Assembly: GCA_024695235.1 (NCBI GenBank)
Contig: JAILIP010000002.1
Span: 7,093 to 71,092 of the forward strand
From: Bacilli bacterium
Lineage (GTDB): Bacteria > Bacillota_I > Bacilli_A > RFN20 > CAG-826
Direction: 5' to 3'
Length of the DNA: 64,000 bases
Shown: positions 2,904-26,115 of the stretch, in pieces
Numbering within the stretch: the stretch's first letter is position 1
How the letters are laid out: each line of letters starts with the position of its first letter
Translations under genes and position numbers: made by a program
The notes under the pieces: model-generated
Seen by the model: only the letters and a program-made list of their open reading frames with translations
Database searches by the model: none
Told to the model about the DNA's origin: nothing

Positions 2904-2948
2904 TAAATTATATTAATAATTCCCTAACTAAAAGTTATAATATTTCCA

Positions 2949-5012
2949 ATGATTACTAAAACAGTTATTAAAGACTATGTAGCGAAAAGATGTCCTTATC
3001 TTGCATCTTTAGAATTAGAAGATAAGTCTCTTGTTCAACTGCTTGAAAAGTCCATTGATAATCAAGAGAAATATCAAGAGCTTCTTTTAGATCAAATTGA
3101 AGATGGAGAAGAAGCTGATTCTTTAATTAATCTTGTGGATGTTTTTAAAGACTATCCTCATTTAAAAAAACAATTAATTAAATATGCGAGCAATAAACCA
3201 AAAAATAAAGCAGAACAATTAGTGGAAAAATATAATGATGACCAAATTGTTTCTAAGCTATCTAGAAGATACTTTGAACTTATATATGGAAAAGATAAAT
3301 GTTTTAGATGTGATGTAAATCTTGATGGAGAAGAAATATTAAATCAGGGACTACTAAGTAAGATTACTGAAGACGCGTTAAAGAACAAAGAAATCAAAGT
3401 TATATTTGAAGGACAAATTGAGTTTTTAGATTTCCGTGCAAGGTTTGATATCATGGTTCGTCAAGATGATGGATCCTTTAGACTTATTGAAGTTAAAGGT
3501 TCTAATTCGGTATTTAAATCTAAAGATGATATTGATAAAGGAATCAAAGATAAATATCTCTATGATATGCTTTTTCAATATTATGTTTATTCTCACGCTG
3601 GATATAACATATCTTCTTTAGCATATATGTATTCTAGTAAAGACTTCTCTTTAAAAATACATTCATATCCTTTAGATGATTCTGAATTTAATGATTTCTT
3701 TATTGTGAAAGACTTCATTGCTTTAAAAGAAGAGACAATGTCACTTAAAAAATACTTTGATGGAGAATACTACGTTCCTAAAAAAGTAGATGATCCAAGC
3801 GAATACACGATTGAAGGAATCATATATGCGATTAAAGATATCGCTAAGATGAAAGATGTTAAACCTGAGATGAGATATCTATGTGTAAAAGGACCAAGAT
3901 GTCCATTCACATCAATGTGCTTCCCAAGTAGTGATGATCCAGATTCATTATTTAAATTAACTAGATGGAATCTATATGGTGGAAACTTTAGAGTGAGTGA
4001 AAAATTGTTAAGCTCAGGAGTAACAAAGATATCTTCTATTCCAGATAACTTAAATACATATTCACCTTTTAAAAGCGATCAAAAAAGACGTAATAATGTT
4101 GTCACTCAAATTGAATATCAAAAAGGAAAGATAAATAAAAAATATGTAATTGATAAATCTTTAATAAAAGAGATTTTAGAAAAAGACTATTTAAATGATG
4201 ATATTGATTACTTACTTTTCTTTGATTTTGAGTCATTTCAATATCCAATTCCTTTAGTAGAACATGTATGTGGTTGGAAACAAGTTGTCTCTCAATACTC
4301 AATGCATGTTGTTAAAAAAGGATATGACTTATCTAAGCATGATTTTGATAAAGGCATTGGAGGAGAAGTTAGACACTTTGAATATATCGCTAATCCGGAT
4401 GTAAGTGGATATATGAATCCGAGCATCGAATTATATGAAACACTAAAAAAACAATTAGAAGAATGCGGCATTGATCCATATGCATCAAACTATAGAGTCG
4501 TTGTTTTCAATAGAAACTTTGAAAAGACAAGAATGAATGAATTTGTAAAAGAATATATTGGACTTGCTAAAAGTGAATTAATAGAGTTTGTGAAAAACTT
4601 TAACAATAATGTTGTGGATCTATTAGACTTTTTCACCTCTGGAGGAATGTATTCAAAAGACTTTAATGGAAGAGGTTCACTTAAAGTTGTTCAACCTACC
4701 TTAGCAAGTGATAAAGATGTAATTGAATATTATAAGAAGATACTACCTTTTGATTTAAGTTATTCTCTTGATTATCACAAGGGCGAAAAGTGTCTTGTAT
4801 ATAACGGAGCGATTTGTCTAGATTTATATAAGTCTTTACTTGTTCGTTCTCATCTTGGTGGTCAAAAAGAAGGTGAACCATCTACAAGTGAATTACTGGC
4901 TGAAGCATTAGCATATTGTAAGATTGACTCTTGGGGCACGGTTATTATTTATGATGTTATTAAAAACGTCTATTTAGGAAAATTAAAACTAGATGCCTTA
5001 TTTGTGCAATAA
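2949..5012 (+). CDS. Cas4/RecB-like PD-(D/E)xK nuclease with Fe-S cysteines fused to an RNase-H-like/DnaQ-like (DUF2779-type) C-terminal domain
   Basis: Cys15, then FDIMV...LIEVKGS...FQYYVY (D / EVK / QxxxY motifs), then CVKGPRCPFTSMC (3 Cys); C-terminal half has LLFFDFESFQ (DEDD-like D-x-E motif). Confidence 0.55.
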   Translation: MITKTVIKDYVAKRCPYLASLELEDKSLVQLLEKSIDNQEKYQELLLDQIEDGEEADSLINLVDVFKDYPHLKKQLIKYASNKPKNKAEQLVEKYNDDQIVSKLSRRYFELIYGKDKCFRCDVNLDGEEILNQGLLSKITEDALKNKEIKVIFEGQIEFLDFRARFDIMVRQDDGSFRLIEVKGSNSVFKSKDDIDKGIKDKYLYDMLFQYYVYSHAGYNISSLAYMYSSKDFSLKIHSYPLDDSEFNDFFIVKDFIALKEETMSLKKYFDGEYYVPKKVDDPSEYTIEGIIYAIKDIAKMKDVKPEMRYLCVKGPRCPFTSMCFPSSDDPDSLFKLTRWNLYGGNFRVSEKLLSSGVTKISSIPDNLNTYSPFKSDQKRRNNVVTQIEYQKGKINKKYVIDKSLIKEILEKDYLNDDIDYLLFFDFESFQYPIPLVEHVCGWKQVVSQYSMHVVKKGYDLSKHDFDKGIGGEVRHFEYIANPDVSGYMNPSIELYETLKKQLEECGIDPYASNYRVVVFNRNFEKTRMNEFVKEYIGLAKSELIEFVKNFNNNVVDLLDFFTSGGMYSKDFNGRGSLKVVQPTLASDKDVIEYYKKILPFDLSYSLDYHKGEKCLVYNGAICLDLYKSLLVRSHLGGQKEGEPSTSELLAEALAYCKIDSWGTVIIYDVIKNVYLGKLKLDALFVQ

Positions 5013-5025
5013 CATTTAAAAAATT

Positions 5026-5051
5026 ATGGAAGCAATGCTTCCATTTTTTTG
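5026..5051 (+). terminator. rho-independent terminator
   Basis: atggaagc-aa-tgcttccat hairpin followed by TTTTTTT. Confidence 0.75.
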
Positions 5052-5105: not shown

Positions 5106-5870
5106 ATGAACGAATTCCAAATTGTTAAATATGAAGATAACGTCGTTGAATTAGATGTTAATTTTTCAACGGAAGATAATACTGTTTGGTTAACACTAAG
5201 CGAGATGTGCAAATTGTACAAGAAGGACAAGTCTGTTATATGGAGACAAATCAATAATATTTATGTTGAAAACAATGCCTTAAAAGGGGCAACTTATGCA
5301 AAATTTGCAACAGTTCAAACTGAAGGAAATAGAGTGATTAATAGGCTTGTTGATCATTATAAATTAGATATCGTTTTTGAGGTTGGTAAACGAATTAAAT
5401 CTAAGATAGCATCAGCCTTCTATAATTGGTGTCAAAATATACTAAATGAGTTAAAAAACGAACATAAAAGTAACTTTGTTACTTTCCACTCAAATGGACT
5501 AGTACTTGATGCATGTGTTTCTCCTGAAGAAAACACAGTCTACCTAACACAAAATGCAATGGCGGACTTATTTGAAACAAATCAACCAAATATTTCATAT
5601 CATATCAAGAGCATTATTGAAGAAGGAGAACTTAAAAATGAGGCAACTCATAAAAAATTTTTATTAGTTCAAATTGAGGGTGATAGGGAAGTAAAACGAG
5701 AGATGAGTTTTTATAATCTGGATATGATTCTTTCTGTTGGATATCGCGTGAAATCTAAGAACGCAATCCTTTTTAGAAGATGGGCAAGTGATGTTTTAAA
5801 AAGATATTTAGTCAAAGGGTACGCAATTGATGAAAAAAGAACACTTGTCGCACATTACATGAAAGAATAA
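5106..5870 (+). CDS. RhuM-family protein (two tandem RhuM N-domains, no C-terminal region)
   Basis: NTVYLTQNAMADLF...ISYHIKSIIEEGEL...YNLDMILSVGYRVKSKNAILFRRWASDVLKRYLVKGYAIDEKR matches the Virulence_RhuM family signature; the first half is a degenerate repeat of the same domain. Confidence 0.8.
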   Translation: MNEFQIVKYEDNVVELDVNFSTEDNTVWLTLSEMCKLYKKDKSVIWRQINNIYVENNALKGATYAKFATVQTEGNRVINRLVDHYKLDIVFEVGKRIKSKIASAFYNWCQNILNELKNEHKSNFVTFHSNGLVLDACVSPEENTVYLTQNAMADLFETNQPNISYHIKSIIEEGELKNEATHKKFLLVQIEGDREVKREMSFYNLDMILSVGYRVKSKNAILFRRWASDVLKRYLVKGYAIDEKRTLVAHYMKE

Positions 5871-7371: not shown

Positions 7372-8601
7372 ATGAAATATTCAAAACTAATATCAAATTT
7401 AGAAAAAGTCATTTTCACTGATGGTGATTTTCAGATGGAAATCGATGTAGAAAAAGGGACAAACGAGCCATGGCTATCATTGAATGAGCTGGCTTATTTC
7501 TATTCTAAAGATAAGTCTGATATTACTAGGCATTTAAACCAACGTGGTACAAAAATGCACCTAGCAGTTGCAAAAAATGCACCACCTAGAAGTGATGGTA
7601 AAGTGTACAAAACTTCTTGTTATAATCTTGAAACAATTATCGAAATCGGCTATCGAGTTAATTCGAAAAGAGGACAAAAACTAAAGGCGTTTTTAGATAA
7701 TTGTTTTGATTCAAATCTTATCGAAATTTCTAATGAAATTATTATATATAATAACGGAGATGTATCAATTGATGTTAGAATCTCTCCGCAAGAAAACACT
7801 GTATGGGTATCTCAAGACAAGATTGCCAAGCTATATGATTCATCTAAACAAGTAGTTTCTTATCACATTAAAAATATTCTTGATGATGAGGAACTCGATC
7901 GTTCAGTAGTCAAAGAAATTTTGACAACTGGATTAGATGGAAAAACGTACTCGATTTCTTACTACAATTTGGACATGGTCATTTCTATTGGTTATCGCAT
8001 AAATTCAAAGAAGGGAATTGCTTTTAGAAAATGGGCTGCATCCACACTTAAAGAGTATTTGATGAAAGGATATTTGGTTAATAAAGAAAGAACTCTTATT
8101 ACAAGTGAGAACTATCTTAATCTCGTAAACAAAGTTGATTCTCTTGAAAACAGAATGGACATCATTGAAGAAAAACAAAACCATCTTTTCATAGAGGATA
8201 AAGTCATATATGAGGGAACAGTATTTGATGCAATAGTGTTAATTAACAAACTCATTGAGATATCACACAGTTCCATTGTGCTTATCGATCCGTATATAGA
8301 TGTAAGAACTCTTGATGCCTTTAAAAGCAAAGAAAGAAATATAATGCTTTTCATCATCACATCGAGCAACAACAGACTCAGTGAAAAAGAGAAGCAAGCC
8401 TTCATAAAGCAATATGGTAGACTAAATGTTTTCTTGGATGATAGATATCATGATAGGTACTTAATCTTAGACAAAACATACTTTTACCATCTTGGCACTT
8501 CTATTAACTACCTTGGCAAACATTTCTCTCAAATCACCTTAGTGGTAGACGAAGACATCAAAGATGTTTTGCACCAAAGAATTAGGAACTATTTCCCTTG
8601 A
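7372..8601 (+). CDS. RhuM-family protein (two N-domains plus the about 150-aa C-terminal region)
   Basis: NTVWVSQDKIAKLYDSSKQVVSYHIKNILDDEEL...YNLDMVISIGYRINSKKGIAFRKWAASTLKEYLMKGYLVNKER. Confidence 0.8.
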   Translation: MKYSKLISNLEKVIFTDGDFQMEIDVEKGTNEPWLSLNELAYFYSKDKSDITRHLNQRGTKMHLAVAKNAPPRSDGKVYKTSCYNLETIIEIGYRVNSKRGQKLKAFLDNCFDSNLIEISNEIIIYNNGDVSIDVRISPQENTVWVSQDKIAKLYDSSKQVVSYHIKNILDDEELDRSVVKEILTTGLDGKTYSISYYNLDMVISIGYRINSKKGIAFRKWAASTLKEYLMKGYLVNKERTLITSENYLNLVNKVDSLENRMDIIEEKQNHLFIEDKVIYEGTVFDAIVLINKLIEISHSSIVLIDPYIDVRTLDAFKSKERNIMLFIITSSNNRLSEKEKQAFIKQYGRLNVFLDDRYHDRYLILDKTYFYHLGTSINYLGKHFSQITLVVDEDIKDVLHQRIRNYFP

Positions 8602-8700: not shown

Positions 8701-8806
8701 TTGTATTAGTAACTGCATCTAATATATAATTTCATACGCGATAGAAATATCGCTTACTCTCTGCCATTAGCAAATAATGGCCAGAAGACCAAAGGGAGGT
8801 GTCTAT
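8701..8806 (+). promoter_or_regulatory. rpsF promoter (TTGTAT-18-TATAAT) and structured 5' leader
   Basis: -10 TATAAT at 8725-8730; the leader holds two hairpins (gcgata-gaaa-tatcgc and gccatt-agcaaat-aatggc) ahead of the GGGAGG RBS; an S6:S18-binding rpsF leader is known in Firmicutes. Confidence 0.45.
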
Positions 8807-9094
8807 ATGAAAAAGTACGAAGTAATGTACATCCTAAAAGCTGATCTCGAAGAAGAAGCTAGAAAGGCTGAAATTGAGAAGCTTCACGCCATTCTTACAA
8901 GCAATGGTGGTCAAGTCACAAATGTGAATGAATGGGGACTTAGAAACTTTGCATATCCAATCAATGATATGCTCAAAGGCTACTATGTCGTCATCAAAGT
9001 CACAACTGATGAAGTTGCTCTTAAAGAGTTTGTTCGCTTAGCAAAGATCAACCAAAACGTTGTCCGTCACTTAATCACAGTCGATAAAGACTAA
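8807..9094 (+). CDS. rpsF: 30S ribosomal protein S6
   Basis: MKKYEVMYILKADLEEE...; the start was moved from the ORF-track ATG at 8777 to the ATG preceded by the GGGAGG RBS. Confidence 0.9.
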   Translation: MKKYEVMYILKADLEEEARKAEIEKLHAILTSNGGQVTNVNEWGLRNFAYPINDMLKGYYVVIKVTTDEVALKEFVRLAKINQNVVRHLITVDKD

Positions 9095-9109
9095 TAGGAG
9101 GATTAAATT

Positions 9110-9529
9110 ATGATGAACAGAATCGTTGTCGTTGGTAGACTTACCCGCGACCCAGAACTAAGAAGAACCGCAAGCGATGTCGCTGTCTGCTCATTCTGCG
9201 TAGCAGTTGATGATCGTGAAAAAGATGCAAACGGAAACAGAACCACATCTTTCATTGATGTAACAGTATGGAGAGAAGCAGCAGATAATGTTGCTAAATT
9301 CTGCCGTAAAGGTTCACTCGTTGGAGTTGATGGAAGACTCCGTCAACGCCGCTTTGAAAGAAAAGATGGTACAAAAGGCTCCACATTTGAAATCGTTGCA
9401 GACAGTGTTCAATTCCTTGAACCAAAATCAAAAGATACTCCAAGTGAAATTGTGAGTGATGAACCTGCATTCGATGACAGCAAGAACTTAGATTCTATTG
9501 ATGTCACAGATGATGACCTTCCATTCTAA
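9110..9529 (+). CDS. ssb: single-stranded DNA-binding protein
   Basis: [18 protein letters not shown]-fold N-terminus, acidic DDDLPF tail; sits between rpsF and rpsR. Confidence 0.9.
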
Positions 9530-9546
9530 AAGAAAGGAATAAGAAA

Positions 9547-9774
9547 ATGGGATACAAAAAAATTAGACCACATAAAAAGGTTTGCTACTTTACCAAAAAT
9601 AAAGTCAAATATATCGACTACAAGGATGTTGAATTATTATCAAAATTCATCACCCCAACAGGTAAGATAGCTTCACGTCATAGCACCGGAACATGCGCTA
9701 AATATCAAAGAGAGCTTGCAAAAGCTATCAAGAACGCACGTTTCATGGGCTTATTACCATACGTTCAAGACTAA
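9547..9774 (+). CDS. rpsR: 30S ribosomal protein S18
   Basis: [29 protein letters not shown] typical of S18. Confidence 0.9.
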
Positions 9775-9790
9775 TTATGTGTTAAAAATA

Positions 9791-9817
9791 AGTCGTCCAT
9801 CATGGGCGACTTTTTTG
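9791..9817 (+). terminator. rho-independent terminator after rpsR
   Basis: agtcgtccatcatgggcgact hairpin followed by TTTTTT. Confidence 0.75.
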
Positions 9818-9892
9818 TTTATTTAACATTGTTCTTAAACCTAAAATATAATTCGGTATATAATACATTTATAATTCCAAAGGAGATCAATA

Positions 9893-10813
9893 ATGAAACA
9901 TTTAATTGTTGTTAATGGTAGTGCTGGTAGTTACACACCAGAATTCGAAGCCAAAATCGCTGAAGCTTTTAAAGATTTAGACTTTGAAATTTATAAAACT
10001 ACAGGTCCAAAAAGTGTCATCCCATTCTTAAAAGAATATCTCAAGAAAGCAAAAGACACCGTCCGTGTTTATGCTTGTGGTGGTGATGGTACAATCCATG
10101 AAGTCGTCAATGGTGTCATTGGCTTTAAAAATGCTGAAGTCGCTATTGTCGCTACAGGTACCGGTAATGACTTTGTCAAAATCTATGGCGGCAAAGAAAA
10201 ATTCCAAGATTTTGCTAGCTTAATTAAAGGCAAAGCTCATCCAATCGATGTCTCTGAACTTACCGGAGAAGGTGTTGAAGGATCAATGTATAGCGTTAAT
10301 GTCATTAACTTTGGTTTTGATGCGATCGTTGGAGCAATGGGCAACTACTATAAAGAACATGGTTTACCAGAAGGCACCAAAGAAGGTACAAACCCATATG
10401 ATTATGCTTTAAAGCATGACGCTATGAAACATGGTCGTTTCAACGATATTGAAGTATTCGCTGATGGTGAAAAACTCAATGAGAAACAAATGCTTCTTGC
10501 CACGCTTGCTCAAGGTCAATTCGTTGGTGGCCAATTCAAATGCGCTCCAAAGAGTGATAATACCGATGGTCTCATCGATGTCTGTGTTCTTAAGACTATG
10601 ACATTCCTTGGCTTAGGCATGATTATTGGAACATATACCAAAGGCAAACACCTTGATAAGCCACGTAAGAAAATCGTCTATCGTAGAGCAAAGGAAATTA
10701 AGTTCTGCTCACCAAAAGACTTCGATGTCTGTGTTGATGGCGAAATGATCAAAGGAAACAACTTCACAGTTAAAGTTGTTCCAGGCGCAGTCAATCTCGT
10801 CTTACCTGAATAA
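9893..10813 (+). CDS. DagK/YegS-family lipid kinase
   Basis: GGDGTIHEVVNG catalytic motif of the diacylglycerol-kinase catalytic domain. Confidence 0.75.
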   Translation: MKHLIVVNGSAGSYTPEFEAKIAEAFKDLDFEIYKTTGPKSVIPFLKEYLKKAKDTVRVYACGGDGTIHEVVNGVIGFKNAEVAIVATGTGNDFVKIYGGKEKFQDFASLIKGKAHPIDVSELTGEGVEGSMYSVNVINFGFDAIVGAMGNYYKEHGLPEGTKEGTNPYDYALKHDAMKHGRFNDIEVFADGEKLNEKQMLLATLAQGQFVGGQFKCAPKSDNTDGLIDVCVLKTMTFLGLGMIIGTYTKGKHLDKPRKKIVYRRAKEIKFCSPKDFDVCVDGEMIKGNNFTVKVVPGAVNLVLPE

Positions 10814-10872
10814 ATAATAAGAGACAGCCAGTAGGCTGTTTTCTTTAAATTTTTGTGATACAATCTAGCTAC

Positions 10873-11544
10873 ATGAAAAAGAGTGCAAAATTAGCAATCG
10901 TCATATCTAGTGCAGTAGTATCTGCTTTAGCGTTAGCAGTAGCAATTCCATTCACTGTTTTGGGTATAAAAACCGCTAGCATGAAAGCCGATTATTCATA
11001 CCTCAAAAACGATGAAAAATATTCAGAAAAAGTCGAAGCAAGTGGACTAGACTTAGTAACTCAACACATTTCATGTGGATACGCTACTATAGAGATGCTT
11101 TCTTCATATTATGGAGAGAAAATTGACGAGGATTCTTTGAGTGAAAAAAATCATGGAAAAATTACCACATCATCATCAAAAGGATTTGAAAAAGAAATCA
11201 ATGCTTCCATCCAAAACCAACACTTCGAAATGCATAGCTACCTTCAACATGATGTGATGCTAAAAGAGATATATGTTTCACTCAAAAACAACAACCCAGT
11301 TGCTATTGAATGGGCCGCTAAATATGAGAATGAATGGACACTACATTACTCAGTTGTGAGTGCTCTAGATTTAGTTAATGATAACGTTACAATATTCAAT
11401 CCTTATGGCTACATCGAGAACATCACAATTGATGAATTTGTGAGCAGAACTAGCTTCAAAGCATACAAGAATATTCCAGGGTTTTTAAACTTCGGTTTTG
11501 CCTATGGTGCATTTGATAAAAATGCAATTTTCTACGCAATTTAG
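10873..11544 (+). CDS. membrane-anchored papain-like (C39-like) cysteine peptidase domain protein
   Basis: N-terminal TM; HISCGYATIEMLSSYYG (Cys nucleophile context) and a later His; start set at MKKSAK directly after an extended -10 (TGTGATACAAT), so the mRNA may be leaderless. Confidence 0.4.
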   Translation: MKKSAKLAIVISSAVVSALALAVAIPFTVLGIKTASMKADYSYLKNDEKYSEKVEASGLDLVTQHISCGYATIEMLSSYYGEKIDEDSLSEKNHGKITTSSSKGFEKEINASIQNQHFEMHSYLQHDVMLKEIYVSLKNNNPVAIEWAAKYENEWTLHYSVVSALDLVNDNVTIFNPYGYIENITIDEFVSRTSFKAYKNIPGFLNFGFAYGAFDKNAIFYAI

Positions 11545-11567
11545 TTGAAAAAATTTTTACAAATTAA

Positions 11568-11594
11568 GGATAGCTGTTAGCTATCTTCTTTTCG
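11568..11594 (+). terminator. rho-independent terminator
   Basis: gatagct-gtt-agctatc hairpin followed by a T-run. Confidence 0.6.
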
Positions 11595-11628
11595 TATTAT
11601 ACGCATATGTTGTTATGGAAAAGAATAG

Positions 11629-11958
11629 TTTGACAAAGGTAATAGCGTTTTTGACAATGTCAGAATTGGTTCAAGCCCTACCGAACCAGGTCTTTTCAAT
11701 AAAACCACAACACTTGAAGTTGAAGGTCACTATTGGGTTAAAACTTCTTGGACAGGCGTTCTCCATAGCAACATATTTTCATTTAGTCAGAGTGGCATTG
11801 TCAGACAAATGGATTTAGGTGAAGGTCGTAGCCAATTTTACATTGAAGGTCTTACCACGGGAACTGTAACAGTAACGGCTACTTTGGTAGTAGGCTATGA
11901 TAGACGAATAATCACTGTTACTACAGATCCAATAACAGTAAATCCAAAAAGCAGTTAG
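11629..11958 (+). pseudogene. orphan C-terminal fragment of a Big_2 (bacterial Ig-like) surface protein, no start codon
   Basis: 109-codon open frame straight after the terminator, no ATG/RBS; ...LEVEGHYWVKTSW...GTVTVTATLVVGYDRRIITVTTDPITVN resembles the Big_2 repeats of the 51233..56146 protein. Confidence 0.35.
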
Positions 11959-12037
11959 AACAACCAAATAATTATCGTATAATTCGACAATATATTTTTA
12001 AGTGCAATAATGGTGTTAATCTAAAAGGAGAAAACAT

Positions 12038-12967
12038 ATGAAAGTGAATACTCATATTTATGATGCAATTGGTCATACTCCTCTTTTTGAGTTAGTTAAT
12101 ATCGAAAAAGAATTTGATCTAAAAGCAAAAGTTGTTGCAAAAGTTGAATATTTCAATCCAGGTGGAAGTGTTAAAGATAGAATTGCTTTAGCAATGATTG
12201 AAGATGCTGAAAGAAAAGGTCTTATCAACAAAAACACAACTATCATTGAACCAACAAGTGGAAACACTGGTATTGGTCTATCAATGATTGCTGCCTCAAA
12301 AGGCTACCGTATTATCATTGTCATGCCTGAAACAATGTCCATTGAAAGAAGAAAGCTCATGAAAGCCTATGGAGCAGAACTAGTTCTCACTGAAGGTAGT
12401 AAAGGCATGAAAGGCGCTATTGCTAAAGCAGAAGAACTTTCAAAAGAAATAAAAAATAGTTTCATTCCTTCACAATTCACAAATCCATCTAACCCGGAAG
12501 TTCACTACAAGACAACTGGTCCTGAAATATATGAGGATATAGATGGCAAACTAGATATCTTCGTTGCAGGTGTTGGAACTGGAGGCACTATCTCCGGAAC
12601 CGGCAAATACCTCAAGGAAAGAAAACCATCTATCAAAGTCGTAGCAGTGGAGCCTGAAACATCTCCAGTGCTTTCAAAAGGCACACCTGGTCCACACAAG
12701 ATTCAAGGTATCGGAGCAGGTTTTGTCCCAGACACTCTTGATACATCAATTTATGATGAGATCATCACGATTTCAAACGAAGAAGCATTCGAAATAGGTA
12801 GACTATCTGCTAGAAAAGAAGGATTACTTGTAGGTATATCCTCAGGTGCTGCTCTAGCGGCAGCCATTAGACTCGCTAAAAAAGAAGAAAACAAAGGCAA
12901 AACCATTGTTGTTTTACTTCCAGACACAGGTGAAAGATATCTTTCAACAGCAATGTTTGAGGAATAA
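12038..12967 (+). CDS. cysK: cysteine synthase A (O-acetylserine sulfhydrylase)
   Basis: [11 protein letters not shown] (PLP lysine), [19 protein letters not shown]. Confidence 0.9.
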
Positions 12968-13238
12968 TCTCCATCAAATCTATGCTTAGTTAAAATAATT
13001 TTATTTTCGCTATCAAAATACTTTTGTTTGAGATACAATTTTATTGTACGAATTATGTGTTATATTGGATTTCAAACATTAACACTCACCAATAAAAACA
13101 CTTTTAATATTGTTTAGACATGTAGAAGCACATGTCTTTATTTTATATTGGTATTTAGTTATCAATTAGAAACGTACGATCTAATTCTTAACTTAATATA
13201 AAAAGTAATAGAAGAAGGAGGAAAAACAAAAAACTAGT

Positions 13239-15779
13239 ATGAAAAAGAAAGTATTATTAGTTCTATTACCAGCCTTAGCAATGGCTCTTGGTAGCTGTAC
13301 TGGCAACTCTTCAGACGCCGCCGATGATGACGATGAAGAAACTAGTCAAGTTACTCCTGGTGGTGATATTGATCCAGCCGAATTTGGTACCAAAGACTCA
13401 CCATTAACAATTGCCCAAGCTAAAGCATTATTAGACAAACTTGATCCAGAAAAAACTGGTGAGACTTATCTTGGACAAAGAGTATATGTTGCAGGTAAAG
13501 TTTCAGCTAATGCTGAAAAAGCAGACGGCAAATATTCATATGCTTATATCGAAGATAAGACAGCTGGCGATTTCTCAATCAACTACTTTGTTTTAGACAG
13601 TGGCATCACAGGCGATTATTCCGCCAAGAACTCCATGAAAGACAAAATGGTTGTCGCGTCAGGTTTTGCATGCATCTTCAAAGATAGCAAGGGCGCATAC
13701 AAATACGAACTTACATCACCAAAAGATAGTGAAGAACAAGCAAAAATCGAATCAATTAGAGATCCAGGTGTATTACCTGATTTCAATCCAGGTACAGAAG
13801 CCGCTCCATTAACAGTTTCTCAAGCTATCGATCAAATTGATAACCACACCGAAGCAAGAACATCCGGCACAGCTGATATGTATATTGCAGGTAAGGTTAA
13901 ATCAAATAACGCTTGGTCAAAAGGAACGGGCTATTCCAACATTGACTTTGTTATTACAGACGGAGCAAAAGATTTCACAGTCTTTAGAGCAACAGAACTT
14001 CCAGGTTATACAACCGAACAAGCAGAAGCTATTGCAGCAAATGCATTAGTTGGAATGGATGCTGTCGTTAAAGCCCCAGCATATTACTATTCAAAGAGTA
14101 GTATTTATGAAACAGCTGCTAACCCAGATGTTTTATCACTTGGATTCCCAGCAGCGACTAGTGTTGAATTCAAACAAGAATCATACGATGCATATATCAA
14201 CGCAGAAGTCGATTTAGATAATCTTGTTAATTTATTACCAGCTGGTTCAGTTGGTACATATGAATTCGACATCCCAGCTGGTGTTGGTTCATTCGATTCA
14301 ACAACAAACGTTTATACAATGCCAAGTTCTGCTCAAGAATTTGATGTTGGTGTTAAACTAACTGGCGCAGCCGAGAATGCTGATACTCTACACTTTGTTG
14401 TTACAGTGCCAGAAGGCGATGCAATCACATCAATCACAGTCTCACCTGCATCACTTACATTCACCGAAGGTGGCGATGCACAAAACTTAACAGCCGTTAC
14501 AGATCCAGTTTCATCTGAATCAAATCATGTTGAATGGGCATTTGTTGAGGGTGAAGACGATGATGTCGTCTCACTAAATTACAGCGCCAACGAAAGAGTT
14601 TGTGTTGTTACCCCACTCAAAGCTGGTACAACCAAAGTTATCGCACGCGTTCAAGAAAATAATGATGTCAAATCTTCACAAATTTCCATCACTGTTAATG
14701 AAGATTTAAGTAAGTATGGTTCATTAGAAAGTCCACTTACCCCTGCACAAGCTTTAAGCCTCATGGCTGAAGAATGTCCAAATAACGATGATGTCACAAA
14801 ACATGTATTCTATGTTCGTGGTGTTGTCACACAAGATCCTACAGACAAAGGTTCATATTGGCAAAACATCTACATTGGAGCAACAGTTGATGCTGCTTCT
14901 GCTGATAGAGTAAGAGCTTATACAGCTAACAAGCCAGCTGGTGTTACCACCTTAATTAAGGGTGATACAGTCACACTCTGTGGTTATGGAACCAAATATT
15001 CTGGTGCATATCAAATGTCCACCAAGAATAGTACCAATGTCACTGTTAACAATATTGCTAGAGGCACATCCACAATTACTGTTACAGGCGATGAGCACGC
15101 AACAGTTACAGGCCTATCTGCAACTGCAGAAAACGCATCTGAACAAACATTTACAGTTACACCTGATAGCGGTTACGAAGTATCTGCAGTCAAAGTCAAT
15201 GGTGAAATAATTACACCAGAAGCAGGCAGCTATTCATTTGTTGTCACAGGCAATATGACAGTTGCCCTCACAATCATTGAAGAAGGTGCAGTTGTTGTTG
15301 ATCCAATTTCATTGACAGCCGAATCTCTTCTTGGATATGACGGTTCAGCCGATGTTGCATATGATACATCATATCAAAACGCAACTGTTGGTGGTGTTGC
15401 ATTTACATACCAACAAATCGGTGCTTACAAGAGCAATCATGCTGGTTTGCAATTCAGAAACAAATTGAATACTTCAGGCAATAACACAAAATCCAATTTA
15501 AACAATACAGTTGAATTTGATAATGCAATCACATCATTAGATTTTACATGGCATTCAACAAAATCAGTGTCTGCTAACTCTAACGTTTTAAAGATTACAT
15601 TTGACACTGTTTCAACCTTTGATAGTGAAGGCAAAGAAGTAATTATGCTTGATACAGTTGCGGATCAAAAAGCATATAATGTTGCACCTACAGGTTCATC
15701 GTTCAAATTTGTGAAGATTGAAATCGATGATGCATTCACATATTCATGCTACTGGGCAAGTATTGTTATTAATTTCTAA
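13239..15779 (+). CDS. surface lipoprotein with three repeats of an about 70-aa domain, a Big_2 domain and a C-terminal beta-rich domain
   Basis: Lipobox LALGSC; repeats DSPLTIAQAKAL.. / AAPLTVSQAIDQ.. / ESPLTPAQALSL..; Big_2-like ITSITVSPASLTFTEGGDAQNLTAVTDP. Confidence 0.6.
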   Translation: MKKKVLLVLLPALAMALGSCTGNSSDAADDDDEETSQVTPGGDIDPAEFGTKDSPLTIAQAKALLDKLDPEKTGETYLGQRVYVAGKVSANAEKADGKYSYAYIEDKTAGDFSINYFVLDSGITGDYSAKNSMKDKMVVASGFACIFKDSKGAYKYELTSPKDSEEQAKIESIRDPGVLPDFNPGTEAAPLTVSQAIDQIDNHTEARTSGTADMYIAGKVKSNNAWSKGTGYSNIDFVITDGAKDFTVFRATELPGYTTEQAEAIAANALVGMDAVVKAPAYYYSKSSIYETAANPDVLSLGFPAATSVEFKQESYDAYINAEVDLDNLVNLLPAGSVGTYEFDIPAGVGSFDSTTNVYTMPSSAQEFDVGVKLTGAAENADTLHFVVTVPEGDAITSITVSPASLTFTEGGDAQNLTAVTDPVSSESNHVEWAFVEGEDDDVVSLNYSANERVCVVTPLKAGTTKVIARVQENNDVKSSQISITVNEDLSKYGSLESPLTPAQALSLMAEECPNNDDVTKHVFYVRGVVTQDPTDKGSYWQNIYIGATVDAASADRVRAYTANKPAGVTTLIKGDTVTLCGYGTKYSGAYQMSTKNSTNVTVNNIARGTSTITVTGDEHATVTGLSATAENASEQTFTVTPDSGYEVSAVKVNGEIITPEAGSYSFVVTGNMTVALTIIEEGAVVVDPISLTAESLLGYDGSADVAYDTSYQNATVGGVAFTYQQIGAYKSNHAGLQFRNKLNTSGNNTKSNLNNTVEFDNAITSLDFTWHSTKSVSANSNVLKITFDTVSTFDSEGKEVIMLDTVADQKAYNVAPTGSSFKFVKIEIDDAFTYSCYWASIVINF

Positions 15780-15826
15780 TTATCTGAACTATAAAGATTA
15801 AATGTGTTTTACACAGCCAACTCGGT

Positions 15827-15858
15827 TAATCCGGGTTGGTTTTCTTTATTACTTCTTT
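15827..15858 (+). terminator. rho-independent terminator
   Basis: ccaactcgg-ttaat-ccgggttgg hairpin followed by ttttcttt. Confidence 0.75.
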
Positions 15859-15930
15859 AACATGTTTTTCAAATATTAATCAACTTTGTTAATTATATTT
15901 GGTGACTTTGTTGTATAATAGTAATCACTT

Positions 15931-17949
15931 ATGAGAACGAAACTCAGAAATTTTAGGTTTGTATTCTTTATAACAGCGATGGTAGAACTCGTTGCTATCG
16001 TTCTTTTTGGAGTGTTCTATTACACGAATGTTTTTAACCTAAAAGAGATAATGAATGTATCTGTTTTATACATCATTCTTTCTGTGTTTATCGTTTTAGA
16101 TATCATTTTCACATGGATAGCATCTTTAATTTTCGCGCGCATCCGTAGACAAAGTGATTTACACGCGGCAGATTTAATAGGTGCAGATATTCAAGAAGCA
16201 TATAACTTTGGTCTAATTGGTTTAGCAATTGTTGATGAAAACAACACTGTTATTTGGACCAATGATTTATTCAAAGAAAGACAAATTGATATTCTTGATA
16301 CCAATATTCTTGAATGGCAACCAAAATTAAAAGAGTTTGAATCATCTGCCAGTGATGCAGTTGTTAAACTTGTTATCAATTCACGTCACTATGAAGTTAA
16401 GTATCTTTCAAATGCCGGACTATATATCTTCAAAGATAATACCGAATATGAAAATACATATGACTTTTCAAAAAGACAAGCCACTGTCGTGGGTATTATC
16501 ATGATTGATAACTACTCTGATTTAAGTGGTACAACAGATGACTCTAACGATATTATCTCCAAAATCAGAAATATCATCTTTGAATACGTCAAAAGATTCA
16601 ACGTTTTAGTTCGTAGATATCGTAATGATGCCTACTATGTCATTTGTAACCATGAATCACTTCAGCAAATGGAAGATGATAAGTTCTCATTAATTGAACA
16701 AATCCATAAGATTGGTGAAAAACAAGAAACACCTCCAACTCTTTCTATTGGTTTAGCTCACGGATTCCCAGATGTAGTTAAGCTAAACGAAATGGCTGAA
16801 AATGCGATTGATATTGCTATGAGCCGTGGTGGTGACCAAGTTGTTGTCTCTAAATATGGTGAAGAACTTCAATTCTATGGCGGTAAGTTCGAAGCCCAAG
16901 AAAATAGAAACAAAGTTAAAGTCCGTGTTATGGCAGACTCTGTCATTTCCCTTATCCGCAACTCATCTAACGTTGTTATCATGGGTCACACAGATATGGA
17001 TATGGACGCTCTTGGATCATGTTTAGGTATGAAAGCCTTATGTGAACACTGCCGTAAACCATCAGTGGTCGTATATGATCAAAAAGATGCTGAAAGAAAA
17101 ACTAGAGGTGCTGTTACAGCTTCCTTCTCAAGAGAAGAAGTCGCAAAGATCACAGTATCTCCAAATGATGCTTTAGATTTAATTAAGTCAAACACCCTTG
17201 TTGTCGTGTGTGATGTTCATAGACCATCCCTCACCACAAATCCAAAGGTACTTGATAAGGCTACCAAGGTTATGGTCATTGATCACCATAGAAGAAGTGA
17301 AGAATTTATTGATTCACCTGTCTTTAGCTATGTTGAACCAAGTGCTTCATCTGCTTCTGAAATGGTCGCAGAACTTATTCATTACTGTTCTGAAAACCCA
17401 AGAGTTAATATTCCAAGTAGCTATGCTACTATCATGCTTTCAGGTATATTTATGGACACTAACTACTTCAAGAGTAAAACTTGTGGTATTCGTACATTTG
17501 AAGCCAGCATGATTCTAAAAGAATTCGGCGCAGATAACTCAACTGCTGATGACTTCTTGAAAGATGAATTCGAAGAATACACTCTTATTACAAGAATTAT
17601 TTCTACTCTTAAGACTCCATATTATGGAATCGTATATTGTCTAGCAGATGAAGATGACATCATTGAAGCTGCAACATTAGCTAAAGTTGGCAATCAATGT
17701 ATGCAAATGAGAGGCGTTAATGCTGCCTTTGTCATTGGTAAGACTGGTGAAAAAGAAGTTCGTGTTTCTTGTAGAAGTGATGGATCAGTTAACGTCCAAC
17801 TTCTTGCAGAACAACTTAACGGAGGAGGACACTTCACCTCTGCAGCAGGTTCTTTTAAGAACACTACTATTGCTAGAGTAGAATCCCGCCTCCTTGAAGT
17901 ATTAAATGAATATTTAAATGATGCAAAGACATCTAAGGAAGAAAAGTAG
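15931..17949 (+). CDS. gdpP: cyclic-di-AMP phosphodiesterase GdpP (TM-PAS-degenerate GGDEF-DHH-DHHA1)
   Basis: Two N-terminal TM helices, DHH domain (GHTDMDMDALGS), DHHA1 GGGH motif (LNGGGHFTSAAGS); conserved position immediately upstream of rplI-dnaB. Confidence 0.85.
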   Translation: MRTKLRNFRFVFFITAMVELVAIVLFGVFYYTNVFNLKEIMNVSVLYIILSVFIVLDIIFTWIASLIFARIRRQSDLHAADLIGADIQEAYNFGLIGLAIVDENNTVIWTNDLFKERQIDILDTNILEWQPKLKEFESSASDAVVKLVINSRHYEVKYLSNAGLYIFKDNTEYENTYDFSKRQATVVGIIMIDNYSDLSGTTDDSNDIISKIRNIIFEYVKRFNVLVRRYRNDAYYVICNHESLQQMEDDKFSLIEQIHKIGEKQETPPTLSIGLAHGFPDVVKLNEMAENAIDIAMSRGGDQVVVSKYGEELQFYGGKFEAQENRNKVKVRVMADSVISLIRNSSNVVIMGHTDMDMDALGSCLGMKALCEHCRKPSVVVYDQKDAERKTRGAVTASFSREEVAKITVSPNDALDLIKSNTLVVVCDVHRPSLTTNPKVLDKATKVMVIDHHRRSEEFIDSPVFSYVEPSASSASEMVAELIHYCSENPRVNIPSSYATIMLSGIFMDTNYFKSKTCGIRTFEASMILKEFGADNSTADDFLKDEFEEYTLITRIISTLKTPYYGIVYCLADEDDIIEAATLAKVGNQCMQMRGVNAAFVIGKTGEKEVRVSCRSDGSVNVQLLAEQLNGGGHFTSAAGSFKNTTIARVESRLLEVLNEYLNDAKTSKEEK

Positions 17950-17957
17950 GTAAGTCT

Positions 17958-18410
17958 ATGAGAGTAATACTATTAAAAGATGTCAAAGGCATCGGTAAGA
18001 AAAACGATATTGTTAATGTTAAAGATGGCTATGCTTCTAACTATTTAATTCCAAATGGTTTAGCAGTCATGGAATCAAAAGGTTCTATAGAAGTTCTTAA
18101 CAAACAAAAAGCAGATAAAGCTAAAAAAGATGCAGATGATAAAGCAAATGCTGAAGTCATTGCAAAGCAACTTGAAAACATCGTCTTAGAGTTTAAGGCC
18201 AATGTTGGAGAAGATGGAAGAATGTTTGGCACCATTTCCAACAAACAAGTTGAAGAAGAACTTAAAAAGACACATAACATCGTTATCGATAAAAGAAAAA
18301 TCATCACCAAAGTTCCAGTAGATAGACTTGGATACACAATTCTAGATATCGAACTATATAAAGGTGTTGTTGGCAAAATTAAAGTGCATGTAAGCGGAAA
18401 GGAGAAGTAA
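17958..18410 (+). CDS. rplI: 50S ribosomal protein L9
   Basis: MRVILLKDVKGIGKKNDIVNVKDGYASNYLIPNGLA. Confidence 0.9.
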   Translation: MRVILLKDVKGIGKKNDIVNVKDGYASNYLIPNGLAVMESKGSIEVLNKQKADKAKKDADDKANAEVIAKQLENIVLEFKANVGEDGRMFGTISNKQVEEELKKTHNIVIDKRKIITKVPVDRLGYTILDIELYKGVVGKIKVHVSGKEK

Positions 18411-18411
18411 A

Positions 18412-19905
18412 ATGGCTGAAATGATTAAATCACTACCTCATAATACTGAGGCTGAAAAAGCTGTTTTAGGAGCGATGATTCGCTCTGCAAGTAAACTTTC
18501 CGATGGAATGGGTGCTTTAGTTGAAGAAGATTTCTTTGAAGAAAATAAAAACCATCGTGCGATTTTCTCCGCGATGGCTCGTCTATATAAAAGAAGTGTT
18601 CCAGTAGACACTCAAACACTTGTTGATGAACTCATTAACTCTAAAGAGTTAGAAGTAAGTGGCGGAGTTCAATACTTAATCGAACTAGTGGATTCAGTTG
18701 TTACATTTGCAAACTTCAATCACTATGTCCGTATCATTCAAGATCAAGCTGTTCTTTGTAGATTCCTTAAATCAATTGCTCGTATTGAAAATGATTATCA
18801 TAAGAAAGACATTGGAAATGTCTCAGATTTCTTAGCACAAAGTGAAAAAGAATTACGTGAAATTGCTGAACTTAGAAAAGTTGGAGATTTCATGGATGCT
18901 AAGAAAGTATCATCCATTCTTTCCCAAGAATTTGAACAATTAAAAGAAGCTACAACTGATGATACAGTTACAGGCACTCCTACAGGATTTAGAAAACTTA
19001 ATCAACTTACCCATGGTTTCCAAAAAGGTGAATTCATTGTTTTGGCTGCTCGTCCTGGTGTAGGTAAAACTGCTTTAGCACTTAATCTTGCCTATAACGC
19101 GGCTTCACGTGGAAATAGACCAGTTGGATATTTCTCTCTTGAAATGCCTGCTACTACATTATTCAAAAGACTAGTTTCAAATGAGTCTCATGTTAGATTT
19201 GATTCACTTTTAACTGGTTATAACTTATCCAAAAACAACGCTAGACTTAAAATCATGCAAGCATGTGAATCTCTTTCAAAAATGAAATTCTATGTTGATG
19301 ATACATCTGGTATTCAACTCTTAGATTTAGTTGCCAAAGTTAGAACTCTATATAATAGAGAACCTGATTTAGGTTTAGTTGTTGTTGACTATATTGGTTT
19401 AGTAAACACCAACCTTAGAAACAAGGCTGATCGTCACTTAGAAGTTCAACTTGTTTCTCAAACACTTAAGAAACTCGCTCTTGAACTTAAGATTCCAATC
19501 ATCGGTGTTGCCCAACTTAACCGTAAAGTTGAAGATAGACCAGGTGGAGAGCCTCAACTTAGTGACCTTCGTGAATCTGGTTCCATTGAACAAGACGCTG
19601 ACATTGTTATGCTTCTACATGAACCAAAGATTGTTCAAGATGAAGATCAAGGTAAAAAGAAATCCATCTTTGATGAATCTGCTCAAAAGGTTGATGCTAT
19701 GCAAGATAAGGTTGCTAAAAAAGAAGGTGGACCATCTACTACAATTGTTAACGTTATCATTGCTAAGAATCGTTCTGGCAAGCAAGGTAAAGTCCCATTA
19801 CTCTTCTCTAAAGACTACTGTAGATTCGATTCTCCAAGCACTGAAAGTGAAAACGAGATTGCAGCATTAGAAAGCGAAAGAGTTTCATATTTTAACCGCG
19901 ATTAA
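18412..19905 (+). CDS. dnaB: replicative DNA helicase
   Basis: Walker A GVGKTALALNLAYNAA, RecA-like core, N-terminal DnaB domain; rplI-dnaB synteny. Confidence 0.9.
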   Translation: MAEMIKSLPHNTEAEKAVLGAMIRSASKLSDGMGALVEEDFFEENKNHRAIFSAMARLYKRSVPVDTQTLVDELINSKELEVSGGVQYLIELVDSVVTFANFNHYVRIIQDQAVLCRFLKSIARIENDYHKKDIGNVSDFLAQSEKELREIAELRKVGDFMDAKKVSSILSQEFEQLKEATTDDTVTGTPTGFRKLNQLTHGFQKGEFIVLAARPGVGKTALALNLAYNAASRGNRPVGYFSLEMPATTLFKRLVSNESHVRFDSLLTGYNLSKNNARLKIMQACESLSKMKFYVDDTSGIQLLDLVAKVRTLYNREPDLGLVVVDYIGLVNTNLRNKADRHLEVQLVSQTLKKLALELKIPIIGVAQLNRKVEDRPGGEPQLSDLRESGSIEQDADIVMLLHEPKIVQDEDQGKKKSIFDESAQKVDAMQDKVAKKEGGPSTTIVNVIIAKNRSGKQGKVPLLFSKDYCRFDSPSTESENEIAALESERVSYFNRD

Positions 19906-25722: not shown

Positions 25723-26115
25723 GGGTCTGACACAGTTTCGACAGGGATGATTGCTTGGCAATAACTGCAGCCGAGTGGTGACGTAATCACCAAACAAAAA
25801 TAACTGACAACAGTTACATGAGAGCTCCAAGAGCTCAAGCATTCTGCGCAGCTTAATTAAGCTCCCGACATAGGGTTCCGACGCAAGGCGCCGGCCAGAT
25901 CACCTCTTGATGGATTAGCCTTTCTTCGTCAATAAAGGTGTTAAATGAAAGGATAGGTTAAGACAGTTGACTTGCTAACCTTAGCCGAATATCAAAAAGT
26001 CTCGCGAAGATAGTTACGATATACGATGCTTCGTTAAAGATAAATATCGTCTAAGCTGTAGACGTTATTGTAGGGCCTTCCTTGGACACGGGTGCAATTC
26101 CCGCCAGATCCACCA
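25723..26115 (+). ncRNA. ssrA: tmRNA (SsrA)
   Basis: 5' GGGUCUG pairs with 3' CAGAUCC-ACCA including a G3:U wobble (alanine identity); 3' GGACACGGGUGCAAUUCCCGCCAGAUCCACCA T-arm/acceptor; TATAAT -10 at 25702-25707; intrinsic terminator follows. Confidence 0.85.

Follow-up and report, generated by a model that had tools for sequence, protein, structure and literature searches.

A DUF2779-family protein of an uncultured rumen Bacilli bacterium with a predicted Cas4-like nuclease half and a predicted DEDDy exonuclease half

The DUF2779 domain (family F.17) was assigned by Majorek et al. (2014) to the RNase H-like superfamily, within its clade of 3'-5' exonucleases, and it co-occurs with DUF83, a PD-(D/E)xK domain (PMC3985635). 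MMSYN1_0389, a member of the DUF2779 family that is quasi-essential in JCVI-syn3.0, has recently been described as a Cas4-like nuclease (HHpred matches 7MID and 4IC1) followed by a DEDD nuclease whose "h" position is occupied by Tyr (HHpred match MrfB, 8UN9), and it keeps two of the four cysteines (mSphere 2026; PMC13621843). A transposon mutant of the M. bovis DUF2779 gene has a growth defect in cell culture that is common to dnaB, holA, recD, gdpP and nrnA mutants (PMC7373297). YprB, also named MrfB, is a Mg-dependent exonuclease that acts on linear double-stranded DNA (dsDNA) and takes part in mitomycin C repair (10.1101/426304). In this study, we analyzed a DUF2779 gene of an uncultured rumen Bacilli bacterium, located on a 64-kb stretch of contig JAILIP010000002.1 (assembly GCA_024695235.1), referred to below as the window, focusing on its domains, conserved residues, chromosomal setting and possible role.

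Other described proteins share parts of this design. The COG2251/TM0106-type 'RecB family nuclease' proteins (F.13) are a parallel fusion of a DUF83/Cas4-like domain with an RNase_H_2-type domain; they match PF13482 and not PF11074 and often carry tandem AAA or helicase domains (PMC3985635), whereas no ATPase domain is present in the DUF2779 protein of the window. AddB, AdnAB and EXO5 have a PD-(D/E)xK domain with a four-cysteine staple, and in AddAB two nucleases are paired for the two strands of a DNA end, which is a conceptual likeness to the protein studied here. As the architecture is already published (Majorek et al. 2014; mSphere 2026) and the protein is already named at NCBI, the discovery value of the locus is small, and what is distinctive in this member is limited to a long-form insertion, the full cysteine set, a clade-specific CxxC and a conserved leaderless-type promoter. 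The family is nevertheless widespread (478 clusters) and has a quasi-essential member in JCVI-syn3.0, and a rumen-Bacilli member in which no cysteine of the set and no catalytic residue is missing would be a sensible choice for initial biochemical work.

Two nuclease domains in one polypeptide

The open reading frame (ORF) at 2949..5012 (+) starts with ATG and encodes 687 amino acids (aa) followed by a stop, a complete coding sequence whose product is identical to NCBI MCR5332420.1, "MAG: DUF2779 domain-containing protein [Bacilli bacterium]". The Pfam DUF2779 model (PF11074) matches aa 424-577 with an E-value of 3e-21 and 76.4 bits against a gathering cut-off of 23.3, spanning profile positions 2-126 of 126, and all 86 aligned relatives match the same model. 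The assignment to the DUF2779 family rests on the ORF, the Pfam match and the identity to the NCBI record. A word-indexed search returned 147 full-length relatives of more than 50% identity, and an exhaustive search of representatives returned 478 clusters (50% identity) at E ≤ 1e-3, among which about 15 are long forms (640-715 aa) and the remainder the usual forms of about 500 aa. The sets of relatives used overall contained 86-117 sequences averaging 18-19% column identity; the 117-sequence set served as the family profile, and the counts given out of 86 refer to the 86-sequence set. The full-length AlphaFold model has a pLDDT (predicted local distance difference test) of 86.6 and a pTM (predicted template modelling score) of 0.83.

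An earlier reading of this DNA, the original prediction, had described a 687-aa protein with a Cas4-like PD-(D/E)xK nuclease in its N-terminal half and a DEDD/RNase-H-like C-terminal half, and had compared it to the DUF2779 architecture. The ORF and all of the motifs quoted there were found in place and conserved across the 86 relatives. The published architecture of the family, an N-terminal Cas4/DUF83-like PD-(D/E)xK domain and a C-terminal DEDD exonuclease, is present in the 687-aa protein, including the published D and E-x-K motif (D167, E181-x-K183) and the four acidic residues (D426, E428, E525, D660) together with Y656. The structural models, the Foldseek matches, the Pfam matches of the relatives and the published analyses (PMC3985635, PMC13621843) agree on this point, and we consider the two-nuclease architecture highly probable.

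The core of the N-terminal half, a PD-(D/E)xK domain of RecB/Cas4 type, was delimited from conservation, the model, Foldseek and the Pfam matches of relatives as aa 116-309 (3294..3875, +). The stretch FDIMVRQDDGSFRLIEVKGS (aa 166-185) holds D167 (3447-3449), E181 (3489-3491) and K183 (3495-3497), and FQYYVY (aa 209-214) holds Q210 (3576-3578) and Y214, so that the RecB-type motifs D, (D/E)-x-K and QxxxY are present as D167, E181-V-K183 and Q210-x3-Y214. SIGNIFICANCE of the motifs in the DUF2779 family was judged on the 86-sequence alignment, at 19% mean column identity. D167, K183 and D206 are invariant (86/86), and E181 and Q210 are each found in 84/86 relatives. Because these residues are invariant or nearly so at such low mean identity, the quoted motifs are family-defining and beyond chance. 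The QxxxY motif proposed in the original prediction stood in its first residue, Q210, and less so in its last: Y214 occurs in 15/86 relatives across the family and is conserved in the close subfamily only.

In the AlphaFold model the elements of the N-terminal half run alpha-beta-beta-beta-alpha-beta, the order of PD-(D/E)xK nucleases; strand 2 carries D167, strand 3 carries E181-x-K183, and the helix that comes next carries D206, Q210 and Y214. When residues 1-332 were modelled separately (pLDDT 80.4), the Foldseek search of this model against the PDB gave Cas4-family structures at all of ranks 1-6 (E 2.2e-3 to 1e-2) and nothing at E ≤ 1e-3; the top matches were the Argonaute-associated ACE1 (9iac, E 2.2e-3), Pcal_0546 (4r5q, probability 0.97) and SSO0001 (4ic1), and AdnAB, EXO5, MGME1, AddB and RecE followed at lower ranks. 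The Pfam model Cas_Cas4 is matched by 23/86 relatives (best E 5.1e-7). An hhalign comparison of the family profile with the E. coli RecB nuclease domain put the motifs in register and was not significant (E 0.089, probability 0.65%). On this evidence, residues 116-326 are a RecB/Cas4-type PD-(D/E)xK nuclease domain (D167, E181-x-K183, D206/Q210).

The C-terminal half, aa 421-687 (4209..5009, +), is a DnaQ-like 3'-5' exonuclease with an RNase H fold and of DEDDy type (D426, E428, E525, Y656, D660), as assigned from Pfam, the model, Foldseek and conservation. It opens with LLFFDFESFQYPIP (aa 422-435), which holds the invariant Exo I motif D426-F-E428 (4224-4232, +) on strand 1. Exo II is F-N-R-N-F-E525 (E525 at 4521-4523, +), located where the helix that follows strand 4 begins, in the "HNxxFD" position, and its acid is Glu in 86/86 relatives where Asp is usual. 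Exo III, Y656-C-K-I-D660 (4914-4928, +), lies on the long last helix and is likewise conserved in 86/86. D669 was considered as the last DEDD acid and rejected, as it is variable, while D660 is invariant and has Y656 four residues upstream. In this half, the residues invariant in the 86 relatives are D426, E428, E525, D557, S577, K579, Y609, Y656, C657 and D660.

That the C-terminal half should be RNase-H-like in structure was borne out by the predicted model, in which aa 421-557 follow the order beta-beta-beta-alpha-beta-alpha-beta of the RNase H fold, and by Foldseek, which for the full model returned the DEDD exonucleases CRN-4, TREX1, RNase T and ERI1 from the PDB (probability 0.8-0.98, E about 6e-3). 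The resemblance to YprB-type domains, also suggested at the outset, is supported by 17/86 relatives that match Pfam RNase_H_2 (YprB type) and by YprB-like proteins of giant viruses. A structure search of BFVD gave whole-length giant-virus matches (E 3e-10 to 8e-8, probability 1.00, 630-895 aligned columns) to Yasminevirus (A0A5K0U8I2), Cafeteria roenbergensis virus (E3T4R0, named "YprB ribonuclease H-like domain-containing protein"), Faunusvirus and Sylvanvirus, the best at E 3e-10. As the matches cover the whole length, the Cas4-like plus YprB-like architecture also exists in Nucleocytoviricota; records of tailed phages gave no match. A mapping of residues onto E. coli DnaQ by hhalign of the family profile was discarded, as the single-sequence template was too weak and the alignment meaningless.

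Beyond the DEDD set, the other invariant residues of this half are D557 (4617-4619), which lies on strand 5, S577 and K579 (4677-4685), Y609 (4773-4775) and C657 (4917-4919), which adjoins the Exo III Tyr.

Compared with MMSYN1_0389, the window protein shares the Pfam family, the order of the two domains, the D...E-x-K motif, the four acids and the Tyr before the last Asp. It differs in keeping all four cysteines rather than two, in being a 687-aa long form with an insertion of about 90 aa, helical and acidic, and a clade-specific CxxC, and in coming from uncultured rumen Bacilli and not from Mycoplasma; the threshold of the NCBIfam model UU173_fam (NF045869) was not reached (39.9 against 225 bits). 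With MrfB and RNase_H_2 (PF13482) the common feature is a DnaQ-like exonuclease of the RNase H fold. MrfB, however, is DEDDh, bears tetratricopeptide (TPR) repeats at its C terminus and has the helicase MrfA/YprA as its partner, whereas the DUF2779 protein is of DEDDy type with Glu at Exo II and has a PD-(D/E)xK domain joined to it, and neither an MrfB-type TPR domain nor a YprA/MrfA-type helicase neighbour was found with it.

Cas4 (4IC1, 4R5Q) and ACE1 (9IAC) are the best PDB fold matches of the N-terminal domain, and they have in common with the protein the RecB-type motifs and one plus three cysteines around the core. Unlike Cas4, it has an exonuclease fusion, a large helical insertion and C-x5-C-x5-C, it does not reach the Cas_Cas4 model, and the window showed no CRISPR array and, among the neighbours and large ORFs scanned, no cas1, cas2 or Argonaute gene. 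The N-terminal domain also matches AddB, AdnAB and EXO5 structures (6ppr, 7lw8, 3u44), at probabilities of 0.16-0.63 (AddB 0.16), which are weak fold matches. In contrast to these enzymes, the DUF2779 protein lacks both a partner subunit and any domain of helicase or helicase-like type, and its second nuclease is DEDD rather than RecB-type: the Pfam scan found no ATPase or helicase domain in the 687 aa, and neither the helicase-like N-terminal domains nor the AddA partner of an AddB-type protein is present.

Cysteines, insertion and linker

The N-terminal helices, aa 1-24 (2949..3020, +; model helices 4-13 and 16-23), carry Cys15 (codon 2991-2993), and the core is followed by CVKGPRCPFTSMC (aa 312-324), which holds C312, C318 and C324. 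This triad, C312-x5-C318-x5-C324 within aa 310-326 (3876..3926, +), forms together with C15 the proposed set of ligands for a 4Fe-4S cluster, based on conservation. Among the 86 relatives, C15 is present in 78, C312 in 67, C318 in 73 and C324 in 66, and some of the relatives that seem to lack a cysteine have a CxC...C pattern at a shifted place. Presence or absence of the N-terminal Cys goes with that of the C-terminal triad (at least three Cys) (94/12/2/9; Fisher p = 1.6e-6, without correction for phylogeny), which matches the prediction that they jointly ligate one cluster. The four cysteines flank the nuclease core at places topologically equivalent to those of Cas4, one N-terminal and three C-terminal. 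This layout resembles the 'iron staple' of Cas4, AddB and EXO5, and Fe-S binding is putative.

A further CxxC (C118 and C121; 3300-3311) lies on a beta-hairpin that precedes the nuclease core as an insertion. It is invariant or nearly so in the clade of at least 50% identity and replaced by R-A-D-T in other long forms. As it is confined to that clade, C118/C121 was rejected as an alternative pair of Fe-S ligands; it could serve this clade as a metal or redox site.

Between the N-terminal helices and the core, aa 25-115 (3021..3293, +) form a helical insertion with a disordered acidic stretch at aa 41-58 (pLDDT below 50). This insertion is specific to long forms of about 640-715 aa and is missing from the forms of about 500 aa, which are the majority of the family. 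The two nuclease halves are joined by a linker domain of about 90 residues, aa 327-420 (3927..4208, +), which may, on weak evidence, be a helix-hairpin-helix (HhH) DNA-binding module. G344-G345 lies there between helices 334-343 and 347-355, and matches to DNA_pol_lambd_f (3/86) and SAM_BAF (1) occur among the relatives. The linker of the window protein itself has no Pfam match. An hmmsearch of the PDB with the 117-sequence family profile gave nothing significant; an IS transposase and the HhH region of Pol beta came up at E of about 0.2.

Chromosomal setting and proposed role

The statement that we favor, with moderate confidence, is that the gene encodes a stand-alone, cytoplasmic two-nuclease DUF2779 enzyme for housekeeping DNA-end processing; within it, the housekeeping role taken alone is evenly balanced. 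A repair-like role is suggested because MrfB is a repair exonuclease, because a member of the family is quasi-essential in JCVI-syn3.0 and because of the M. bovis mutant phenotype. In such a mechanism the protein would bind a DNA end or a junction of single strand and duplex, the Fe-S nuclease would cut or degrade the 5'-ended strand and the DEDDy domain would trim the 3'-ended strand, so that one polypeptide would process both strands of a DNA end with divalent metal ions and no helicase motor. Its job would be repair, recombination or the clearance of broken or linear DNA, and the gene would be resident, vertically inherited and singly transcribed, and not a partner of AbiH. The original prediction had instead placed it in defence rather than repair; the nearest characterised relative of its C-terminal half, YprB (MrfB), is a repair exonuclease, and that preference was not retained.

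Several observations weigh against the favored statement. With regard to the domains, the N-terminal half of the window protein has no match to any Pfam model in the full-length scan, and it does not match Cas_Cas4 (PF01930) even at E ≤ 10; PDDEXK_1 stays below threshold there (15.1 bits against a cut-off of 22), and RNase_H_2 is not matched by the 687-aa protein itself. The statistics of the fold matches in the PDB are weak (E at best 2e-3 to 6e-3, template modelling scores of 0.15-0.34), the hidden Markov model and profile comparisons with PDB sequences and with E. coli DnaQ and RecB are not significant, and phmmer of the 687-aa protein against PDB sequences gave nothing at E ≤ 10. The cysteine spacing in Cas4 and AddB is C-x2-C-x5-C, and here it is C-x5-C-x5-C. 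With regard to the role, the activities, the polarity and the substrate (DNA or RNA) are all inferred, and the literature found contains no biochemical study or assay of any DUF2779 protein. Finally, flanks rich in defence candidates in the close clade fit defence about as well as they fit a core gene beside a hotspot, and one genome (UBA4278) has two paralogues.

Immediately upstream of the DUF2779 gene lie an AbiH gene (1423-2526, +; Pfam AbiH E 5.7e-25, PADLOC AbiH 5e-8) and a small membrane-protein gene (2487-2903, +) that overlaps AbiH by 40 nt, and the DUF2779 ATG follows the latter after 46 nt. A TATAAT -10-like box (2936..2941, +), a putative promoter of its own, stops 7 nt short of the ATG, and the interval contains no Shine-Dalgarno sequence. 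The stop is followed after 14 nt by a hairpin resembling an intrinsic terminator (5026..5051, +), with an 8-bp stem containing four G-C pairs and then a T7 run; in total, nine terminator-like sites were observed in 9.2 kb against 2.8 ± 1.5 expected. A -10-like box (TATAAT, TAAAAT or TACAAT) placed 7-13 nt before the ATG without a Shine-Dalgarno sequence recurs at not fewer than 12 loci of the close clade, whatever lies upstream (L001, L002, L006-L009, L011, L012, L014, L015, L020, L031, L033), and a more distant clade (33-39% identity) has a canonical GGAGG before the start. These signals point to the DUF2779 gene as an autonomous, probably leaderless (or near-leaderless) transcription unit.

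The comparison covered 34 homologue loci (L001-L034), some pairs of which are the same place, giving about 30 distinct places. Nine of the loci (L001-L005, L031-L034) are metagenome or assembly contigs that encode seven chosen homologues, and the other 25 come from species-representative genomes, all metagenome-assembled genomes (MAGs) of uncultured rumen or gut Bacilli-like organisms. A homologue of the window AbiH within 4 kb was found in one other place only (L004/L005), 2.5 kb downstream and with three genes between, and none is present near the four closest relatives (78-81% identity). The membrane-protein gene recurs only in L010. No conserved operon partner was found among the homologue loci; the small ORFs immediately upstream were considered as such a partner and rejected, being unrelated membrane proteins beyond very close relatives.

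The original prediction had taken the embedding of the gene in an Abi cassette to suggest a role in degrading foreign DNA. Spelled out, the protein would be the effector nuclease of an AbiH-centred abortive-infection cassette and would degrade phage DNA together with AbiH and the membrane protein. The position directly downstream of these two genes on the same strand with a 46-nt gap, the two RhuM/PDC-S05 genes downstream, and a guanine-cytosine (GC) content at 1-8 kb slightly below that of the rest of the window speak for it. However, AbiH lies near the gene, and not adjacent to it, in only one of about 30 other places, the -10 arrangement before the ATG is kept where AbiH is absent, the terminator is strong, and the DUF2779 protein matches no PADLOC model (0 families of PADLOC-DB v2 at E ≤ 0.01). 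AbiH is also described as a single-gene system. We regard this explanation as very improbable. Because a -10 box and a terminator of its own flank the gene, because AbiH recurs near L004/L005 only and because there is no operon partner, the gene is taken to be independent of AbiH; the adjacency is incidental. A useful negative outcome is that the Abi context gives no ground for annotating the DUF2779 protein as a defence effector.

Inheritance can be judged from the flanks. In six places, of which five are in species-representative genomes and one is on a metagenome contig, SIR2 and a xanthine/uracil permease lie close to the gene, and pairwise identities of the DUF2779 proteins (84-98%) resemble those of the permeases (83-97%); the divergence of DUF2779 thus tracks that of the permease, as expected for vertical descent. 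In the clade of 33-39% identity the neighbours include acyl-ACP thioesterase, PNP_UDP_1, PTAC, YhfT and RDD genes. No match was found in 50,697 phage records or in PHROGs, so that a phage origin was rejected, and among 72,556 plasmids only 17 distant matches were found, all non-mobilizable. Housekeeping synteny, the permease-like divergence, the absence of phage matches and the few plasmid matches point to a resident gene.

A second explanation is a stand-alone nuclease against mobile elements, a 'solo-Cas4-plus-exonuclease' of defence islands that destroys incoming linear DNA and has no fixed partner. The genes found up to 4 kb from DUF2779 in the close clade number 118 and, in raw counts, include five RhuM/PDC-S05 genes, seven XRE-type helix-turn-helix (HTH) genes and five AAA_14 genes (four with DUF4143; five match PDC-S01 models), as well as SLFN-type helicases, YhcG nucleases, nucleotidyltransferases and ADP-ribosylglycohydrolases. 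Such neighbours (RhuM, AAA_14-DUF4143, XRE HTH, SLFN, YhcG) make these flanks rich in defence candidates, L004 has a NERD helicase together with AbiH, L033 has AbiEii and TIR, UBA4278 has two paralogues, giant viruses carry the same architecture, and the mSphere paper places the family under 'immunity connections' (PMC13621843). Against this stand the stable place beside housekeeping genes across species with matching divergence, the position of the distant clade entirely among metabolic genes, the quasi-essentiality in a minimal cell that faces no phages, and the absence of the protein from PADLOC, phage records and PHROGs and its near absence from plasmids. A solo defence function is considered unlikely, and the DUF2779 gene often borders a variable, defence-island-like stretch.

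The two long-form DUF2779 paralogues of MAG UBA4278 (L009 and L017) lie on different contigs and have 62% and 55% identity to the window protein.

A third explanation is an enzyme of nucleic-acid turnover, nucleotide salvage or RNA processing, in which the DEDD domain would be a 3'-5' exoribonuclease or oligonucleotidase fed by the PD-(D/E)xK endonuclease. RNase T, ERI1/3'hExo and ERI3 are found among the Foldseek matches alongside DNases, the M. bovis DUF2779 mutant came from the same screen as mutants of NrnA (a nanoRNase) and GdpP, and lineage contigs of about 1 Mb suggest reduced, salvage-dependent genomes. On the other side, the leading matches of the N-terminal domain are Fe-S nucleases of Cas4/AddB/EXO5 type, which are DNA enzymes, MrfB as the closest characterised relative of the C-terminal domain degrades linear dsDNA, the M. 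bovis genes closest in kind (dnaB, holA, recD) belong to DNA replication and repair, and the possible HhH linker suggests binding of duplex DNA. This explanation seems quite improbable.

A bolder form of the favored DNA-end-processing role would be that long-form DUF2779 is a helicase-independent, single-polypeptide enzyme of DNA-end resection that replaces AddAB/RecBCD in reduced-genome Bacilli and Mollicutes, which we hold to be speculative and rather unlikely. If it were true, it would explain the quasi-essentiality in JCVI-syn3.0; the enzyme would destroy unprotected linear DNA and would sit at, and perhaps protect, the borders of defence islands, and the same module would have been captured by giant viruses.

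Neighbouring genes and other features of the window

Downstream of the DUF2779 gene are two RhuM/PDC-S05 genes, then a gene for a formate/nitrite-type transporter and a YhhN gene, and further downstream the core cluster rpsF-ssb-rpsR, gdpP, rplI and dnaB (8777-19905), 4 kb from the DUF2779 gene. The AbiH/RhuM stretch is thus a small variable patch within a core chromosomal region. No CRISPR-like array was found in the 64-kb window and no cas1/cas2 or Argonaute gene among the window neighbours and large ORFs scanned; as the 64 kb hold no array, a CRISPR association of the DUF2779 protein was rejected.

The first RhuM-family gene (5106-5870; PADLOC PDC-S05) duplicates the N-terminal module of RhuM in tandem, and the second (7372-8601; PADLOC PDC-S05) has an extra C-terminal domain of about 170 aa that weakly resembles PDC-S05 long forms and the N-terminal domain of VPA1262. 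RhuM/PDC-S05 genes lie within about 4 kb of long-form DUF2779 in 6-7 of about 20 close-clade loci, mostly just downstream; the sites elsewhere are L009 13893-15170, L011 2483-3397, L013 12809-13783, L020 12290-13189 and 13373-14608, and L034 3194-4381. Nothing else in the flank is constant. This recurrence could reflect an insertion hotspot or a functional link.

The MAG contigs of related organisms measure about 1.0-1.1 Mb, which suggests small genomes. No tRNA genes were found in the 64-kb window, and a transfer-messenger RNA (tmRNA) gene lies at 25723-26115 with the tag DNSYMRAPRAQAFCAA. Three copies of the Rfam cow-rumen-1 RNA (RF02946) are located on the (+) strand at 33610-33670, 33925-33985 and 34252-34311, with 72, 85 and 68 bits where the gathering score is 53, and are spaced about 315-327 nt apart. 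This triplet of an orphan RNA motif lies directly upstream of the gene at 34592-35839, which belongs to the RmuC family (DNA recombination).

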